A stretch of 64,000 nt of DNA from a virus, in the IMG/VR virus record IMGVR_UViG_3300046820_001050, positions 1 to 64,000 of that record, one strand, 5' to 3'. A program made the position numbers and the translations under genes. Each line of letters opens with the position of its first letter. The stretch's first letter is position 1. Below the pieces are notes generated by a model. That model saw only the letters and a program-made list of their open reading frames with translations, was not told where the DNA came from and ran no database searches. Positions 3,937 to 39,406 of the stretch are shown piece after piece.

Positions 3937-3963
3937 ATTCCTGAGCAAGAATACAAACTGCTC
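3937..3963 (+). ncRNA. pseudoknot motif, copy 2
   Basis: ATTC-CT-GAGCA-A-GAAT-ACAAAC-TGCTC. Confidence 0.75.
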
Positions 3964-4433: not shown

Positions 4434-4460
4434 CGACCTGAGTATGTCGCTAAACTGCTC
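4434..4460 (+). ncRNA. pseudoknot motif, copy 3
   Basis: CGAC-CT-GAGTA-T-GTCG-CTAAAC-TGCTC. Confidence 0.75.
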
Positions 4461-4954: not shown

Positions 4955-4982
4955 TAAACCTGAGCATGTTTAAAAACTGCTC
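4955..4982 (+). ncRNA. pseudoknot motif, copy 4
   Basis: TAAAC-CT-GAGCA-T-GTTTA-AAAAC-TGCTC, preceded by hairpin TTAGTAG-GGGG-CTACTAA. Confidence 0.75.
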
Positions 4983-6182: not shown

Positions 6183-6210
6183 AATTCCTGAGTAAGAATT
6201 AAAACTGCTC
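6183..6210 (+). ncRNA. pseudoknot motif, copy 5 (just 5' of tRNA-Asp)
   Basis: AATTC-CT-GAGTA-A-GAATT-AAAAC-TGCTC. Confidence 0.75.
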
Positions 6211-12154: not shown

Positions 12155-12186
12155 TTGACAAAGATATCATATGATATACTTGGTCT

Positions 12187-17025: not shown

Positions 17026-17273
17026 TAGTATAATATATTTATGATCTGTAAAACCTGCGGGATGGACAAAGAAAACATCAACTACTGGGATACTCATCAA
17101 ACTATGAGTGATTATAAGGTGTGGTGTGCCAAGAGAGCCTAAGATTACGAAGATGGACTGGAGAGCCTTGGGCTATTGGCCCGTCTATAAGGATGGGAAA
17201 AAGGTTTGGGAAAAGGATGATAAAGATAGTAATTCAAAGTAAAGAATTATTCCCTTTATGATATAATAAATAC

Positions 17274-18287
17274 ATGACTGATTTAACCAGAGATATTTTA
17301 AAATTTTACAAATACAATGAAAAAAATAGTTGGTACCTAACAAAATTTTTTTCAGAAACAAAAAATATTGGATACTATTCTCCATACCAAGAAGTAGGTA
17401 TCACTGGAACAAAAGAAGAAAATCAAAAGTACGCTGCAACTATAGATGAAGATAATACATATAAAATTAATGGTCTTGGTTTTCGTGGAAAAATTAATGA
17501 AGGTGCAGATGCACTTGGAGTTGGTTGCTCCATAACCTTTGGTCTTGGTGTTCCAGAATCAGGAAGATGGACAGACATATTAGCAAACAATCTTGGTAAA
17601 AGTGTTAACAATTTAGGAAGCCCTGGAGCCTCTGTAGCAACTATTTGCAAAAACATTATTCAATACTGCTTGATAAACGGAATGCCAAAAGAAATTTTTT
17701 GTTTGATGCCAGACTTTTTTAGAAGAATGGTAGTAGTAGACAAGGAATTTTACACATCTAAAAAAGGTACAGACAGAAATAGCCCTGGTAAAGGCGATCA
17801 CTTAGAGTTATTTTTTTGCAATCCAAGAGTTGCAAAATATGAAGACTCTATATTTATGGAAATAGAAGATAAAAAATATATAGAAGATTCAATTTCTCCA
17901 CATCAATTAATTTTAGATTCAGTAGAGTATCTCTATATTTTAGAATCCTTTTGTTTAACAAATGGAATAAAACTATACTGGACAACTTGGGATCGACCAA
18001 GTTCTTTAATCATGAACGAATTATCAAAAATTAAAGATTTTAAACTAAAAAGGTATACTAATCTTTTTTCAGAAACAACCGCATATGGCTATGACCCTTC
18101 ATTTAACAATACTTGCAACTCAGACCACAACTCTGAGTTTAAGGATAGTTCATGGTGGAGTCTTGGATCAGATTATTCAATTATAGATTATAAAAAAACA
18201 AATAAATATTCTCATCCAGGAATTCACTTTCATTATCACGTTTCAGATCTTTTCTATGAGTTACATAAAAAAGATTCAAACAACTAA
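17274..18287 (+). CDS. SGNH-hydrolase-like phage protein
   Basis: N.LGFRG...GCSITFG.G...W...NLGSPGAS...HPG; leaderless. Confidence 0.7.
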   Translation: MTDLTRDILKFYKYNEKNSWYLTKFFSETKNIGYYSPYQEVGITGTKEENQKYAATIDEDNTYKINGLGFRGKINEGADALGVGCSITFGLGVPESGRWTDILANNLGKSVNNLGSPGASVATICKNIIQYCLINGMPKEIFCLMPDFFRRMVVVDKEFYTSKKGTDRNSPGKGDHLELFFCNPRVAKYEDSIFMEIEDKKYIEDSISPHQLILDSVEYLYILESFCLTNGIKLYWTTWDRPSSLIMNELSKIKDFKLKRYTNLFSETTAYGYDPSFNNTCNSDHNSEFKDSSWWSLGSDYSIIDYKKTNKYSHPGIHFHYHVSDLFYELHKKDSNN

Positions 18288-18559: not shown

Positions 18560-19018
18560 TTGATCAAAATTAAGCCGACAGCACACATCTATGACGTAGA
18601 TGGTACCTTGGCCAATGTAGACCCCTATCTACATCATGTTCGTGGCTCTAATAGGGATTACGATGCCTTTCATGGGGCCTCTATCAATGCCCTGCCAAAC
18701 ATAGAGGTGCTTGAAATGCTTAATAATTCTGTTAGTGATGGTCATTCTATTTTGGTCGTGACATCTCGTAAAGAAAAATATCGTGGACTTACATCTATGT
18801 GGCTTGCTAAAAATAACATTAGGTCTCATGGACTATTTATGAGAGCAGATAACGACAATAGGCCAGACTATGAGGCAAAAAAAGATATTCTTGATAAAAT
18901 AAGTGTACTGTGGGATGTAACTCATGCAGTAGACGACAATCCTAATGTAATAAAATTGTGGGAAGATCATGGTATTGCCACAACAAAAATAGGTAATTGG
19001 GATGGCAATAAAAGTTGA
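18560..19018 (+). CDS. HAD-family phosphatase (polynucleotide kinase phosphatase-domain-like)
   Basis: DVDGTLA, VTSR, LFMR...RPD..K, VDD. Confidence 0.85.
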   Translation: MIKIKPTAHIYDVDGTLANVDPYLHHVRGSNRDYDAFHGASINALPNIEVLEMLNNSVSDGHSILVVTSRKEKYRGLTSMWLAKNNIRSHGLFMRADNDNRPDYEAKKDILDKISVLWDVTHAVDDNPNVIKLWEDHGIATTKIGNWDGNKS

Positions 19019-21593: not shown

Positions 21594-21611
21594 ATTATCA
21601 GTATACCATAA

Positions 21612-21881
21612 CTATTGTCCAGTTAGCCTGTTATGAGTTCTTATCCTATGACAATTAGCACAGACTACCTCACACTTTTCAATCTCTTTCTTAATAGCCT
21701 TCCAGGAAAACCCATCATGGATCATTCTGGATATGTTATATTTTTTGTCTCTTATGTGGTCAAAATCTAAGATAATGTGGTTGCTTATTCCACAATCTGC
21801 ACAGCCAGAATCTTCTTTTATTTTAGCAAGCATCTTTTTATACTGTTGCTTATTATAATGGTCTAACTCTTTGTCAGTCAT
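21612..21881 (-). CDS. small HNH endonuclease
   Basis: CADCG...LDFDH...EIEKCEVVCANCHRIRT; own TATAAT promoter. Confidence 0.85.
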   Translation of the reverse strand: MTDKELDHYNKQQYKKMLAKIKEDSGCADCGISNHIILDFDHIRDKKYNISRMIHDGFSWKAIKKEIEKCEVVCANCHRIRTHNRLTGQ

Positions 21882-21908
21882 TGTTATTATTATACCGCCA
21901 AATGTTAG

Positions 21909-21992
21909 GTCCCACACAAGCAATTCACCTGACTTGCGCCACGGTCTCTATCCAATGGGTAACTAATCCATCACTAAGGTCCTGTGTGGGAC
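21909..21992 (-). ncRNA. putative 84-nt structured ncRNA
   Basis: 12-bp terminal helix GUCCCACACAGG/CUUGUGUGGGAC, GCAA tetraloop; 5' G lies 7 nt after TG-C-TACAAT. Confidence 0.65.
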
Positions 21993-22015
21993 AATTATAT
22001 TGTAGCATAGGAAAT

Positions 22016-22128
22016 GAGCAGTTTATAGACGACTGCTCAGGTCTATTAGCCACGAAGATTTAACTCCTGCTAACTCTCTTCTCATAAGAGCATCCGTTGC
22101 AAAACCTTTTAAAGTCTTATAGCGGAAT
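22016..22128 (-). ncRNA. putative ~113-nt ncRNA: three hairpins plus pseudoknot copy 6
   Basis: follows TATAAT (22141-22136); ends in ATAGAC-CT-GAGCAGT-C-GTCTAT-AA-ACTGCTC. Confidence 0.6.
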
Positions 22129-22172
22129 AGTATCTATTATACTACCTAGTTTTACATGATATACTGTTAAGC

Positions 22173-22847
22173 ATGAACGGTAAAAAAATAATAAGAGGCC
22201 AATTAGGATACAATGAAGAAAAAACATATGGAAGCGATGAAATAGAAATGGCATTTCCCATATCGCAAAATCAGTTAAATAATGCAAGACTGTTTACATC
22301 TAAAGATGAGTACGCAAAAACCCTAAATAAAAATCTATCCTATTTAGAGGTAGGCGTTGCTTGGGGCTATTCTGCTCAAATATTTATAAATACAACAAGC
22401 GCTAAAAGTGCTGACCTTGTAGACTTTTATAACAGTGCTTATGGAATTGCAGTACAAGAAGACCGTCCTTTAGAAAACATTTCAATAACACATGAACAAT
22501 ATATAAAAAATAAATTTTTGTACCACCCTAATATAAATGTAATAAAGGGAGATGCAAAAGACATAATTCCAACACTGGATAAAAGGTATGACCTTATTCT
22601 ATTAGACATGGACACAGATAGATTATTAATAAGGAACCTGCTGAGACATTGCTCTAAATTAACTAATGTTGGTGGAGTTGTGGGCCTAACTTCTTATATA
22701 AACTATGACAGTATTTTGTATAATCATCCAGTAGGGGTATTCCAAAGTGTAAATGAATTTTTACATTTTAATAGTAACTGGTCTGTAGATGCAATGGTTT
22801 TAAATGATCTTGGATTTCATGATATATACATAAAGAAAAATTCATAA
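22173..22847 (+). CDS. class I SAM-dependent methyltransferase (Methyltransf_24-like)
   Basis: YLEVGVAWGYSA, IKGDA, YDLILLD, GV..SVNEF; lone + strand gene, leaderless. Confidence 0.75.
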   Translation: MNGKKIIRGQLGYNEEKTYGSDEIEMAFPISQNQLNNARLFTSKDEYAKTLNKNLSYLEVGVAWGYSAQIFINTTSAKSADLVDFYNSAYGIAVQEDRPLENISITHEQYIKNKFLYHPNINVIKGDAKDIIPTLDKRYDLILLDMDTDRLLIRNLLRHCSKLTNVGGVVGLTSYINYDSILYNHPVGVFQSVNEFLHFNSNWSVDAMVLNDLGFHDIYIKKNS

Positions 22848-23395: not shown

Positions 23396-23959
23396 CTACT
23401 TATTCAATTTTTTATATTCATTTATATTTAGACGAATAGGCGAGCCATTAAAATTAAACCACAGGGTAGAAGAGTATCTTTCTTTGCCAATATTTTCAAG
23501 CACTTCATGCGGGTAGTCCTCATTGCTAGGGAATGTGACAAAACTGTTAGCCTTTGGCTTAATTTTTAAATTATGATTTGGAAAATTTATTTCTCCCCCC
23601 TCATAGTCATCGTTAATATAGTATATTACTGCAAAGTCTCCAGTGGTATCGGTGTGTTCATTCATTTTATGTCCTTTTTCAAATTTAATTAGATGAACTT
23701 CATTTCTTTCAAAAACACGAAGTTTTGCATCATAAATTTCTGTGCACTTGTCATAAGCAATTCTGAAAACTTTTTCTAATGAATCAACAATTTCTTTTGG
23801 CATTTCTTTTGATAGAAAGAACTTGACTCCCCATGGCTGAACCTGCCAGGAGTCAATAGCCTTTGCATAATCAAGCAGTTGTCTGTGTTCTGCTTCAGAC
23901 AAAACATTTTCTGTGAGTTGTATATTATTTGCAGAGTTTTCTAAATTTGATTTTATCAT
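23396..23959 (-). CDS. 2OG-Fe(II) oxygenase
   Basis: EHTD...YINDDYEGGE...YPHEV...RY. Confidence 0.9.
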   Translation of the reverse strand: MIKSNLENSANNIQLTENVLSEAEHRQLLDYAKAIDSWQVQPWGVKFFLSKEMPKEIVDSLEKVFRIAYDKCTEIYDAKLRVFERNEVHLIKFEKGHKMNEHTDTTGDFAVIYYINDDYEGGEINFPNHNLKIKPKANSFVTFPSNEDYPHEVLENIGKERYSSTLWFNFNGSPIRLNINEYKKLNK

Positions 23960-23962
23960 ATT

Positions 23963-24565
23963 TCAAGTATACCATTGTTTCTTTTTGTTAAAAGTGGATC
24001 CAGTAAACTGAAACCATAGAGATGAACTATATCTTTCTCCCTCTAAAATTCTAAATACTTCATGTGTATAGTTTTCATTTCCAGGAAAAATAATCAGACT
24101 GTTAGGCTTTGGCTTAATTTGAATATTGTGATCTATTAAACTTATTTCTCCACCTTCGTACTCATCATTGATGTAATAAATTGATGCAATATGCAGCGAT
24201 TCATTTGAGTTAACGTCTGCGTGTGGATGCAAAACAAAATCTTTTTCAAATTTAATTAAGTTAAATCTGTCCTTTGAAAAAATGTCAATTGGCACGTTAT
24301 AGACATCTTTGGCTTTTTCGTAAGCAATCGTAAATACCTCTTCTAATGAATCAATAACTTTGTCAGACATCTGGTCTAGCCCAATAGTCTTAGCATCCCA
24401 TGGCTGCAGCACCCAGAACTTACGACGAGTTACAAAATCAAGTATCTCATTGTGCTTATCTTTGTCCAAAACATTTTCTATATATATTACGTTTTCTGCG
24501 GAGTTTCCTATTTTAGCAACATTTGCTAAATAGATTTCATCTTTTTCAGAATAATCTTCACTCAT
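23963..24565 (-). CDS. 2OG-Fe(II) oxygenase
   Basis: PHAD...YINDEYEGGE...YTHEV...RY. Confidence 0.9.
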   Translation of the reverse strand: MSEDYSEKDEIYLANVAKIGNSAENVIYIENVLDKDKHNEILDFVTRRKFWVLQPWDAKTIGLDQMSDKVIDSLEEVFTIAYEKAKDVYNVPIDIFSKDRFNLIKFEKDFVLHPHADVNSNESLHIASIYYINDEYEGGEISLIDHNIQIKPKPNSLIIFPGNENYTHEVFRILEGERYSSSLWFQFTGSTFNKKKQWYT

Positions 24566-25181
24566 AGTTCATCCTTTGACGAGTTGTTGTTGGTCCTAAA
24601 AATGTAGATCCAGTAAAAACAAACCTTGCGCCAAAAGTATATCTAAATCCTTCTAAAACTTCAAGTACTCCGTGAACGTAGTTTTCATTACCAGGAAACA
24701 TAACTAAACTATTTGACTTGGGTTTAATTTTTAAATCATAATCTGGAAAAAATATTTCTCCTCCTTCATAATTATCGTTAATATAATACATACACACAAT
24801 ATGTTGGTGTTTTTGAGCATCTGTGTCTATATGCGGCTTCATATTGCTGCCCTTGCGCCACTTAGTCAAAAAATATTGACCCATCAAATCACTATCCACT
24901 TCTATGTCATAATAACTAATACAGTCGAGTCTAGCAGTTTTAAATATTTTTTTTAAAATTTCAACAGAATCCTCTGGCATTGCTTCAACAGGAATTCTTT
25001 CGGTAGTCCATGGCTCTTGAATCCAAGGAATATGATCTGAATTATTTACAAAATTAGATAATGTTTGATATTCTTTATCTGGTAAAAAATTATCTATAAC
25101 ATATATGTTTTTTGCAGAACTTCCTAATTTAGCGACATTTGCTAAATAGATATCATCTTTTTCAGAGTCGTGTTCCATCAT
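24558..25181 (-). CDS. 2OG-Fe(II) oxygenase
   Basis: PHID...YINDNYEGGE...YVHGV...RY. Confidence 0.9.
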   Translation of the reverse strand: MMEHDSEKDDIYLANVAKLGSSAKNIYVIDNFLPDKEYQTLSNFVNNSDHIPWIQEPWTTERIPVEAMPEDSVEILKKIFKTARLDCISYYDIEVDSDLMGQYFLTKWRKGSNMKPHIDTDAQKHQHIVCMYYINDNYEGGEIFFPDYDLKIKPKSNSLVMFPGNENYVHGVLEVLEGFRYTFGARFVFTGSTFLGPTTTRQRMNYE

Positions 25182-25840: not shown

Positions 25841-26125
25841 TTATGAATCCACCGTCAATCTTTGCCAAGTATTTGCCCAATCTGATTTAGACTTGTGTTT
25901 TGAAAACTCTTTAGATATTTGTCCACCCTCCAAGTATACACCACCCCAAATTCCCCACTCTTTTTGCGAAACTCCAACTGCAAAACACATTTTTGATACT
26001 GGGCACATTGAGCATAGTTTATCTATTGCTGGTCTTAATAGTTCATCATCTTCGTACTTTTCAAAAAATAAATTTGTATCATAGTCCAAGCACAAAGCAT
26101 CATCTTTCCATTCATGTTTTGGCAT
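25841..26125 (-). CDS. whiB: WhiB family Fe-S transcription factor
   Basis: W...ALC...D..LFF...C..CPV..C...GIWGG. Confidence 0.92.
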   Translation of the reverse strand: MPKHEWKDDALCLDYDTNLFFEKYEDDELLRPAIDKLCSMCPVSKMCFAVGVSQKEWGIWGGVYLEGGQISKEFSKHKSKSDWANTWQRLTVDS

Positions 26126-39379: not shown

Positions 39380-39406
39380 GGGCAGTTTTAAGTCATGCCT
39401 AGGACT
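39380..39406 (-). ncRNA. pseudoknot motif, copy 7 (between S8 stop and tRNA-Asn)
   Basis: AGTC-CT-AGGCA-T-GACT-TAAAAC-TGCCC; compensatory change in stem 2. Confidence 0.7.

Follow-up and report, generated by a model that had tools for sequence, protein, structure and literature searches.

RNA84, a probable structured small RNA gene beside a minimal HNH gene in an uncultured freshwater actinophage

In this study we describe an 84-nucleotide (nt) element on the minus strand of a virus genome, at positions 21909 to 21992 of a 64,000-nt stretch that we call the window. The window is the first 64 kb of IMG/VR record IMGVR_UViG_3300046820_001050, a 98.6-kb virus genome that is ~90% complete. We name the element RNA84 and number it from position 21992, which is nt 1. 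Comparison with its relatives indicates that RNA84 is very probably a real structured RNA gene. The explanation that we lean towards for the locus as a whole, with a confidence somewhat above even, is a free-standing gene for a stable phage small RNA with a homing-type HNH endonuclease gene at its 3' edge. RNA84 is among the most conserved sequences of its phage clade, yet it matches nothing described.

Structure and conservation of RNA84

The predicted structure of RNA84 is a three-way junction in which a closing stem, P1, brings both ends together and two hairpins, P2 and P3, are connected by short joiners. The parts are the following.

21909-21992, minus strand: RNA84, folded as a three-way junction in which the RNA's own ends form the closing stem (RNAfold and homologs)
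21981-21992, minus strand: 5' arm of P1, nt 1-12, pairs with 21909-21920
21974-21980, minus strand: joiner J1/2, ACCUUAG, nt 13-19, invariant in the family alignment apart from the one change given below
21953-21973, minus strand: P2 hairpin, nt 20-40, U-GAUGG, 9-nt loop AUUAGUUAC, CCAUU-G
21946-21952, minus strand: linker J2/3, GAUAGAG, nt 41-47
21927-21945, minus strand: P3 hairpin, nt 48-66, ACC-g-UGGC, loop GCAA, GUCA-GGU
21921-21926, minus strand: joiner J3/1, GAAUUG, nt 67-72, family consensus G-R-A-(A)-U
21909-21920, minus strand: 3' arm of P1, nt 73-84

In the window, nt 1-12 (21992-21981, GUCCCACACAGG) pair with nt 73-84 (21920-21909, CUUGUGUGGGAC). These twelve pairs comprise ten Watson-Crick pairs, one G-U and one G-C, and at the DNA level P1 contains an exact 10-nt inverted repeat. 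P2 and P3 also contain G-U pairs. The closing stem, the UGAUGG/CCAUUG and UGGC-GCAA-GUCA hairpins, the ACCU/AGGU pairing and the GAUAGAG junction had been pointed out in an earlier note made from the DNA sequence alone, and all of them are present in the window as written there. RNAfold gives RNA84 a folding energy of -31 kcal/mol (z = -3.2), a value that 2 of 200 dinucleotide shuffles equal. Seen from the window alone the fold is suggestive and not decisive, because AT-rich inverted repeats (11-13 nt within 120 nt) are frequent here. The guanine-cytosine (GC) content of RNA84 is ~0.5 against 0.37 for the genome, an excess typical of structured RNA genes. RNA84 is single-copy in the 98.6-kb genome and has no paralogs there.

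The relatives of RNA84 are numerous, with homologs at more than 300 viral loci. A pattern with the exact stem is found in 57 viral contigs and a core pattern in at least 119, and the HNH protein encoded next to RNA84 has more than 570 relatives in IMG/VR. When an HNH protein of 73% identity was used as the query, 80 further loci from a second HNH clade were obtained. Our model R1 finds RNA84 in 79 of these 80 (49-111 bits), lying ~30 nt upstream of the HNH gene in all but one locus (L265). Among close relatives, which give 105 distinct combinations of RNA and HNH gene, the interior of the RNA (nt 13-72) is 99.5% identical, compared with 84% for the adjacent HNH coding DNA.

The closing stem shows a different pattern of change. 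In alignment A2, which holds 42 distinct RNA84 sequences, six pairs of P1 are altered on both sides and pairs 2-12 are never unpaired; none of 500 shuffles reaches the observed values. One relative (L238) carries four double compensatory changes in P1 around an interior identical to that of the window. Read on the minus strand, the single-step intermediates of P1 are without exception G-U (9 cells in 5 pairs) and never A-C, which argues for selection on a minus-strand RNA rather than on a DNA palindrome. The structural conservation that the earlier note had left to be looked for is thus found, as homologs with a covarying P1. A chance fold without function might be argued from the window-only z = -3.2 and from how common short inverted repeats are in this genome. 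Its probability is practically nil, since it is already refuted by the comparative data: conservation lies far above that of the flanking coding DNA, and the changes in P1 are compensatory. We conclude from the aligned sequences that the fold is not a chance one.

Two observations weigh against the explanation that we favour. P2 shows essentially no covariation, so that its hairpin is supported by folding energy and by the variable length of its loop. Furthermore, all relatives are metagenomic contigs, with no match in cultured phages.

The 5' part of the RNA is constant in the comparison. The 5' domain GG-ACCUUAG-N-GAUGG-N(1-3)-UAGUUACC-CAUU is invariant outside the N positions. In the ACCUUAG joiner the sole change in A2 is A to G at one position of one sequence (L261). 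The first one to three bases of the P2 loop differ in sequence and number, and the UAGUUAC that follows is invariant. Four scans of 2.9 million IMG/VR viral contigs looked for changes at the four bases AUGG of GAUGG, one base per scan, with the rest of the domain intact, and no family member had one. The 3' strand of P2 tolerates change, from C to U in L261 and from UU to AC in L248 and L300. As AUGG is fixed while its pairing strand varies, the 5' strand of P2 seems to be read by sequence and not by shape alone. P1 would accordingly be a scaffold selected for pairing and one strand of P2 would be selected for its sequence. A freely covarying scaffold set against one fixed strand defines a concrete and testable working surface.

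The P3 hairpin can be formed at the same place in all 42 sequences, with loops that vary widely (GCAA, CUUCGU, UAUUGU, GUACGU, CUAGU and others). The lower stem and the preceding linker vary too, and only ACC and GGC are invariant in this region. The ACCU/AGGU helix and the GCAA tetraloop, which hold for the window, are not conserved in the family. A conserved purine junction fares no better, since the divergent clade has AU-rich linkers of other lengths. By this alignment, only one subclade has the GCAA tetraloop and the purine junction.

Predicted transcription of RNA84 and its HNH neighbour

The features that flank RNA84 on its own strand bear on how it might be transcribed and on its relation to the next gene.

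21999-22007, minus strand: extended -10-like element TGCTACAAT, followed by a 6-nt spacer (21998-21993) and the predicted start G21992
21899-21908, minus strand: 3' tail CUAACAUUUG, where weak termination or trimming may take place; the 3' end is a predicted one
21882-21896, minus strand: the HNH gene's own -10, GGTATAAT, hexamer 21894-21889, 7 nt ahead of the ATG and kept in relatives
21612-21881, minus strand: gene for a minimal HNH nuclease of 89 amino acids (phrog_2255 1.7e-23, phrog_3106 1.3e-21; Pfam HNH weak)

An extended -10 exactly 7 nt upstream of the RNA had been claimed, and G21992 is indeed the seventh base after TGCTACAAT (22007-21999). The relatives show that this spacing outlives the surrounding DNA. 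RNA84 is found behind at least six unrelated classes of upstream context, including a pseudoknot-ended RNA module, the stop codon of hsp20, a pair of transfer RNA (tRNA) genes for Asn and Asp (L238) and a gene for a 2-oxoglutarate (2OG) oxygenase (L233). In almost every class a TACAAT, TATAAT, TATACT or TATGAT hexamer ends 6 nt before nt 1 of the RNA; the exceptions are L270 and L261, with TAAAAT/TTAAAT 9 nt upstream. Behind the tRNA-Asn and tRNA-Asp pair (L238:548-900, minus strand) RNA84 follows directly, after a 23-nt spacer that contains TATGAT. The promoter geometry is that of the phage's leaderless genes, with nt 1 of the RNA in place of the A of ATG.

At the other end, many relatives have UUUU or a U-rich tract directly after P1, and downstream of the tail a separate -10 is set for the leaderless start of the next gene. 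With good confidence we regard RNA84 as its own transcription unit, a reading of both transcription and RNA ends that is taken from sequence. The independent structured small RNA with its own promoter that the earlier note proposed is in keeping with the covariation of P1, the fixed -10 spacing and the presence of RNA84 ahead of genes other than HNH. In the mechanism that we propose, a host-type extended -10 promoter would direct transcription from the first base of P1 onwards, and the product of ~84-90 nt would fold into the three-way junction, with the GC-rich P1 tying both ends together. P1 would protect these ends and, together with the U-rich tail, probably sets the 3' end.

A point that counts against this is the tail in the window, CUAACAUUU, which is a poor, non-canonical terminator, so that read-through into the HNH gene is possible. 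A terminator scan reports none on the minus strand of the window, and many alleles have UUUU or UUUA right after P1. Termination alone does not explain a conserved interior of 60 nt.

Another possibility is that RNA84 acts in cis on neighbouring mRNAs. It could terminate the upstream gene, often hsp20, or stabilise its 3' end, or it could serve the downstream gene as leader or attenuator. The GC-rich closing stem is followed by U-rich sequence in many alleles, the element lies directly past the hsp20 stop codon in many loci, and the window has no terminator between RNA84 and the HNH gene. A terminator, however, needs no invariant interior of ~30 nt, and the -10 spacing is kept even where RNA84 follows the tRNA pair, the other RNA module or the oxygenase gene. 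Different genes follow downstream, each equipped with a -10 for a leaderless start of its own. We consider the cis reading very unlikely. A riboswitch or cis-acting leader in particular was rejected on two grounds, namely that the conserved GGTATAAT-N7-ATG promoter stands between RNA84 and the HNH gene and that RNA84 is also found ahead of unrelated genes with their own -10.

The HNH gene, single-copy in the genome like RNA84 itself, is the most constant neighbour. Its ATG lies 28-33 nt past RNA84 in 212 of 216 loci selected by the RNA (98%), an answer to the co-occurrence question raised in the earlier note. Four loci (L199, L165, L237 and L210) have no HNH gene; there an identical RNA runs into UUUU, with another leaderless gene behind it. 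In L034, downstream of 3765 on the minus strand, the HNH gene is internally deleted. The reverse case is found in L315 (1400-1500, plus strand), where an intact HNH gene stands behind an RNA84 without its 5' third and the 3' end of hsp20 is fused into the RNA84 loop. This loss possibly arose through CCTAAG/CCTTAG microhomology, and the L315 and L034 alleles could both be assembly artefacts. In L265 the RNA and the HNH gene are 855 nt apart. The two also diverge independently: over 120 pairs, the identity of the HNH protein and that of the RNA interior are uncorrelated (r = -0.12), with HNH proteins of 73% identity beside identical RNA interiors and those of 93% identity beside RNAs of 81% identity.

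Because of the loci without HNH, the L034, L315 and L265 arrangements and the uncorrelated divergence, the HNH protein does not appear to be a co-adapted partner of RNA84, which was one of the roles first suggested for the RNA. It is likely a hitch-hiker. The sequence features by which homing genes are recognised are present, namely a nuclease motif and, at a constant position next to a conserved gene, presence/absence polymorphism. This pattern leads us to read the HNH gene as a homing-type endonuclease gene that stands free at the 3' edge of RNA84 and recombines independently of it. The SegB protein of phage T4 is a free-standing homing endonuclease encoded among tRNA genes (PMC2330249), and a recent study found that it amplifies anti-defence RNA genes next to it (PMC13096335). 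In the same manner the HNH gene, with its own leaderless promoter, would have landed at the RNA84 edge and would not act as a cofactor of the RNA.

The adjacency of the two genes weighs against a mere hitch-hiker. With HNH following RNA84 in 98% of the loci selected by the RNA and RNA84 preceding HNH in 79 of the 80 selected by the protein, a functional tie is possible. RNA84 and the HNH protein might then form one functional unit in which the RNA serves as cofactor, guide, regulator, antidote or cassette marker. In many relatives the promoter, RNA and HNH gene also shift as a block relative to the upstream DNA. Against such a unit stand the four intact RNAs without HNH, the truncated RNA of L315, the separation in L265 and the lack of co-divergence. 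Moreover, the protein consists of a bare HNH motif of 89 amino acids and its gene has its own promoter. We find the one-unit explanation quite unlikely, and keep to a free-standing RNA gene with a homing-type neighbour.

Possible targets of the invariant 5' domain

Conservation at the level of tRNA or ribosomal RNA (rRNA) within a hypervariable accessory region usually means contact with conserved host machinery. We narrowly favour the view that RNA84 is a trans-acting binder that works through its 5' domain, although this action and any target are read from sequence patterns. The working surface would be the invariant series ACCUUAG, GAUGG, UAGUUACC and then ACC, while P1, the linker and P3 would form a scaffold that is free to change. 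As for the target, our best single guess would be the host translation apparatus, at the helix 69 region of 23S rRNA.

In the phage genome, complementary 8-11-mers that could mark antisense targets occur at the chance rate. A GTDB-wide scan with the invariant 5' domain gave two matches. One lies in a coding region of a Bacteroidetes metagenome-assembled genome (MAG) and fits chance, by which two or three matches to the pattern are expected; the other comes from an Actinomycetota MAG and is antisense to its 23S rRNA. In the helix 69 region, CUAAGGU, CCAUC, GGUAACUA and GGU are the colinear complements of ACCUUAG, GAUGG, UAGUUACC and ACC, respectively. The complementarity runs in blocks of 7+5+8 (+3) nt over E. 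coli 23S ~1903-1931, a stretch that takes in the loop of helix 69, the 3' strand of that helix and the CUAAGGU after it. The variable positions of RNA84 coincide with the interruptions of this duplex. When RNA84 was aligned with 16S and 23S rRNA in both orientations the match scored 17, which 5 of 300 shuffles attain (p ~0.017), and the variant in L275 scored 20, attained by 1 of 300 (p 0.003). By duplex energy helix 69 is the best site in 23S rRNA, and 6 of 200 shuffles reach it. Full-length RNAduplex runs were uninformative, with huge loops.

Several results speak against helix 69. By these scores the match appears only nominally significant, and other windows of the same intergenic region have similar duplex energies against rRNA. 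Of the 66 sampled Actinomycetota in which the site can be read, only 11 have the CCAUC strand, and the rest have CGGUC or CCGUC. This tally includes two unpublished genomes (G049 and G089); leaving these out gives 48 CGGUC, 11 CCAUC and 5 CCGUC and the same conclusion. The sole match free of bulges is to a rare 23S variant, which has an extra C between helix 69 and CUAAGGU (L324:2685-2708, plus strand, which corresponds to G001:C5:18686-18719 of an Actinomycetota MAG). The extra C is found in one genome among the GTDB representatives, in 1 of the 66 sampled Actinomycetota and in five metagenome contigs, counts that rule out this variant being common.

Two resemblances to 16S rRNA were also considered. 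The P2 sequence GGAUUAGUUACCC matches the 790 loop, GGAUUAGAUACCC, at 12 of 13 positions; 6% of shuffles equal this against 16S and the chained similarity has p = 0.16, and we retain it just as a side note to helix 69. The 790 loop packs against the base of helix 69 in the ribosome. Mimicry of 16S helix 27 (GCAA loop and UGAAUUG) was abandoned as the GCAA loop is not conserved in the family.

Helix 69 is thus a fairly unlikely target on the present sequences. Targeting of the ribosome is the only guess that the sequence supports, and at this same low probability it is a guess and no finding. A more specific form of the idea, in which the phage makes RNA84 to act on the ribosomal subunit interface by docking on free or nascent 50S subunits, is unlikely. 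If it were true, translation might be shifted toward the phage's leaderless mRNAs, or the joining or recycling of subunits might be blocked. Mycobacterial MazF toxins cut the nearby helix 70, and an alternative effect would be that the helix 69 region is shielded from a host toxin. Among known phage RNAs, RNA84 would then be the first with rRNA as its direct target, and this would be a new mode of host take-over. Should the rRNA lead prove wrong, RNA84 would still be a clean new RNA family, and the locus a defined site for homing by a minimal HNH nuclease.

It is also conceivable that the selected object is DNA, for example a site that the HNH nuclease recognises or lands at, perhaps related to 23S rDNA helix 69-71, or the inverted ends of a small mobile module. 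Large-subunit rDNA around ~1917-1951 is a classic region for introns and homing-endonuclease sites, and the 5' domain of RNA84 resembles 23S rDNA around helix 69. The HNH gene lies at the 3' edge of RNA84, mosaic breakpoints are found on both flanks, and there is an inverted repeat of 10-12 nt. The intermediates in P1, however, are G-U on the minus strand and never A-C, and P2 and P3 use G-U pairs. RNA84 is single-copy, its promoter geometry is conserved, and its GC content is ~0.5 in a genome of 0.37. We consider selection on DNA even less probable than a cis element, and prefer a trans-acting RNA.

Comparison with known RNAs and the phage setting

The searches for a known family point to RNA84 being new. 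With Rfam 15 at the gathering score, the whole window gives only its six tRNAs and no match to any other family, HEARO, hammerhead, twister, pistol, hatchet, riboswitches, Y RNA and C4 among them. At E<=10 the region 21700-22250 gives five matches at chance level, of which only snoZ278 overlaps RNA84, scoring 15.3 bits where its gathering score is 36; RF00005, the tRNA family, has no match at RNA84. ARAGORN also calls six tRNAs in the window and none at 21909-21992, and its strict, relaxed, intron, mitochondrial and transfer-messenger RNA (tmRNA) modes give noise only and no credible call at RNA84. The element had been said to be neither tRNA nor tmRNA, and both programs agree; a tRNA mimic or a ribozyme, which were also proposed, find no support in either. 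RNA84 may still be a decoy, a role that the earlier note named as well. The Rfam check that had been suggested assigns no family, and the core motif of the hammerhead is not present in RNA84. Megablast and blastn searches of the cultured phages in INPHARED found no match to the locus, and our model R2 found no host homolog in the 151 sampled Actinomycetota genomes to which that search was limited. RNA84 thus appears to represent an undescribed family that, as far as we searched, is confined to uncultured freshwater actinophages of the WhiB type.

Several known systems resemble RNA84 in part. The T4 tRNA region encodes the small stable RNAs species 1 and 2 (rnaC/rnaD). Like RNA84, which in L238 comes right after two tRNA genes, these are phage-coded structured small stable RNAs with function unassigned, and there too a free-standing homing endonuclease gene stands beside very conserved RNA genes. 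RNA84 has no sequence or Rfam relation to them, and has its own promoter where the T4 RNAs are cut from a tRNA precursor. Its neighbour is an HNH and not, like SegB, a GIY-YIG enzyme, and the host is actinobacterial.

Y RNAs, including YrlA, are similar in size, have their ends locked in one stem and show a conserved internal module to a partner. They are bound by Ro60/Rsr and are also found in some phages. This candidate was rejected, as the phage has no TROVE/Ro60 gene, RNA84 has no Rfam match and P1 covaries freely without a conserved bulge such as the protein site of Y RNAs. The C4 RNA of phages P1 and P7 is a trans-acting antisense RNA with a structured scaffold and an exposed seed. RNA84 shares with this type a variable scaffold with invariant short single-stranded or loop segments, and its P2 has one invariant strand with a tolerant partner strand, as expected of a seed. 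In contrast to C4, the phage genome yielded no target for it, it has no Rfam C4 match, and its sole candidate target is 23S helix 69.

HEARO RNA, the omega-RNA of IscB, is likewise a structured RNA directly upstream of an open reading frame (ORF) that contains HNH. That system pairs an RNA of ~300 nt with an IscB of ~400 amino acids with RuvC and HNH domains, whereas here 84 nt stand beside 89 amino acids. It was rejected as the neighbour protein has the HNH motif only; RNA84 is also found without the ORF at some loci and has no Rfam match. A C/D-box guide has a box C (RUGAUGA) and a box D (CUGA) joined by a terminal stem, its guide sequence lies upstream of box D, and its partners are L7Ae and fibrillarin; no bacterial proteins of this kind are known. 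RNA84 was rejected as a guide of this kind: it has only a C-like GUGAUGG, CUGA is restricted to the divergent clade, the spacing to P1 is 7 and 4 nt, and the rRNA-complementary blocks include the C-like box itself.

Upstream of RNA84 lies a second RNA element, and the window contains a dispersed pseudoknot and many promoters of the leaderless type.

22016-22128, minus strand: upstream promoter-driven structured RNA module, promoter TAGTATAAT at ~22143-22135, ends in a copy of the dispersed pseudoknot
792-819, 3937-3963, 4434-4460, 4955-4982 and 6183-6210, plus strand, and 22016-22046 and 39380-39406, minus strand: pseudoknot copies
21594-21609, 17258-17273, 22157-22172, 12171-12186 and 23960-23975: examples of leaderless-type promoters

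The upstream module is separable and not part of RNA84, because in many relatives it is 0.5-1.2 kb away or absent. In L136 two of its stems carry compensatory changes, and its 20-codon ORF takes many non-synonymous changes; L086 has a second copy of 70% identity. The pseudoknot is of the H type, ~28-31 nt long and present in seven copies in the window. Its stem 1 differs from copy to copy and always pairs, and its loop, GAGCA, forms pairs with a UGCUC further downstream (GGCA with UGCC in copy 7). The ends of two copies lie 5-8 nt ahead of tRNA-Asp and tRNA-Asn, and one copy stops 23 nt short of RNA84.

The window has a GC content of 34-41%, and its gene products include a DnaE-type polymerase, a DnaB-type helicase and a large terminase. 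In lakes, freshwater actinobacteria (the acI lineage, for instance) belong to the most abundant bacteria, and hardly any of their phages has been cultured. A WhiB-family protein at 25841-26125 (minus strand) scores 42 bits, over the Pfam cut-off, and whiB serves as a marker for phages of Actinobacteria (PMC10914622). The host is thus expected to be actinobacterial, and the phage is a WhiB-encoding freshwater actinophage. Naming the host through WhiB similarity was uninformative, with matches of only ~40% identity; one of these is in the unpublished genome G049, on which no conclusion here depends. At least 13 phage genes have a TGnTATA(A/C)T box 6-7 nt ahead of the ATG and no Shine-Dalgarno sequence, an arrangement that makes leaderless mRNAs likely and is also consistent with an actinobacterial host. 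The phage appears to make many leaderless mRNAs, chiefly from its accessory-gene region.

Further genes in the window merit mention. A PNKP-type HAD phosphatase (18560-19018, plus strand) adjoins the tRNA cluster. It is preceded by a leaderless ORF of 337 amino acids (17274-18287, plus strand) with no Pfam or PHROG match, and the two may be an RNA-repair pair. Three tandem paralogs of a 2OG-Fe(II) oxygenase lie at 23396-25181 on the minus strand, each with its own leaderless-type promoter.

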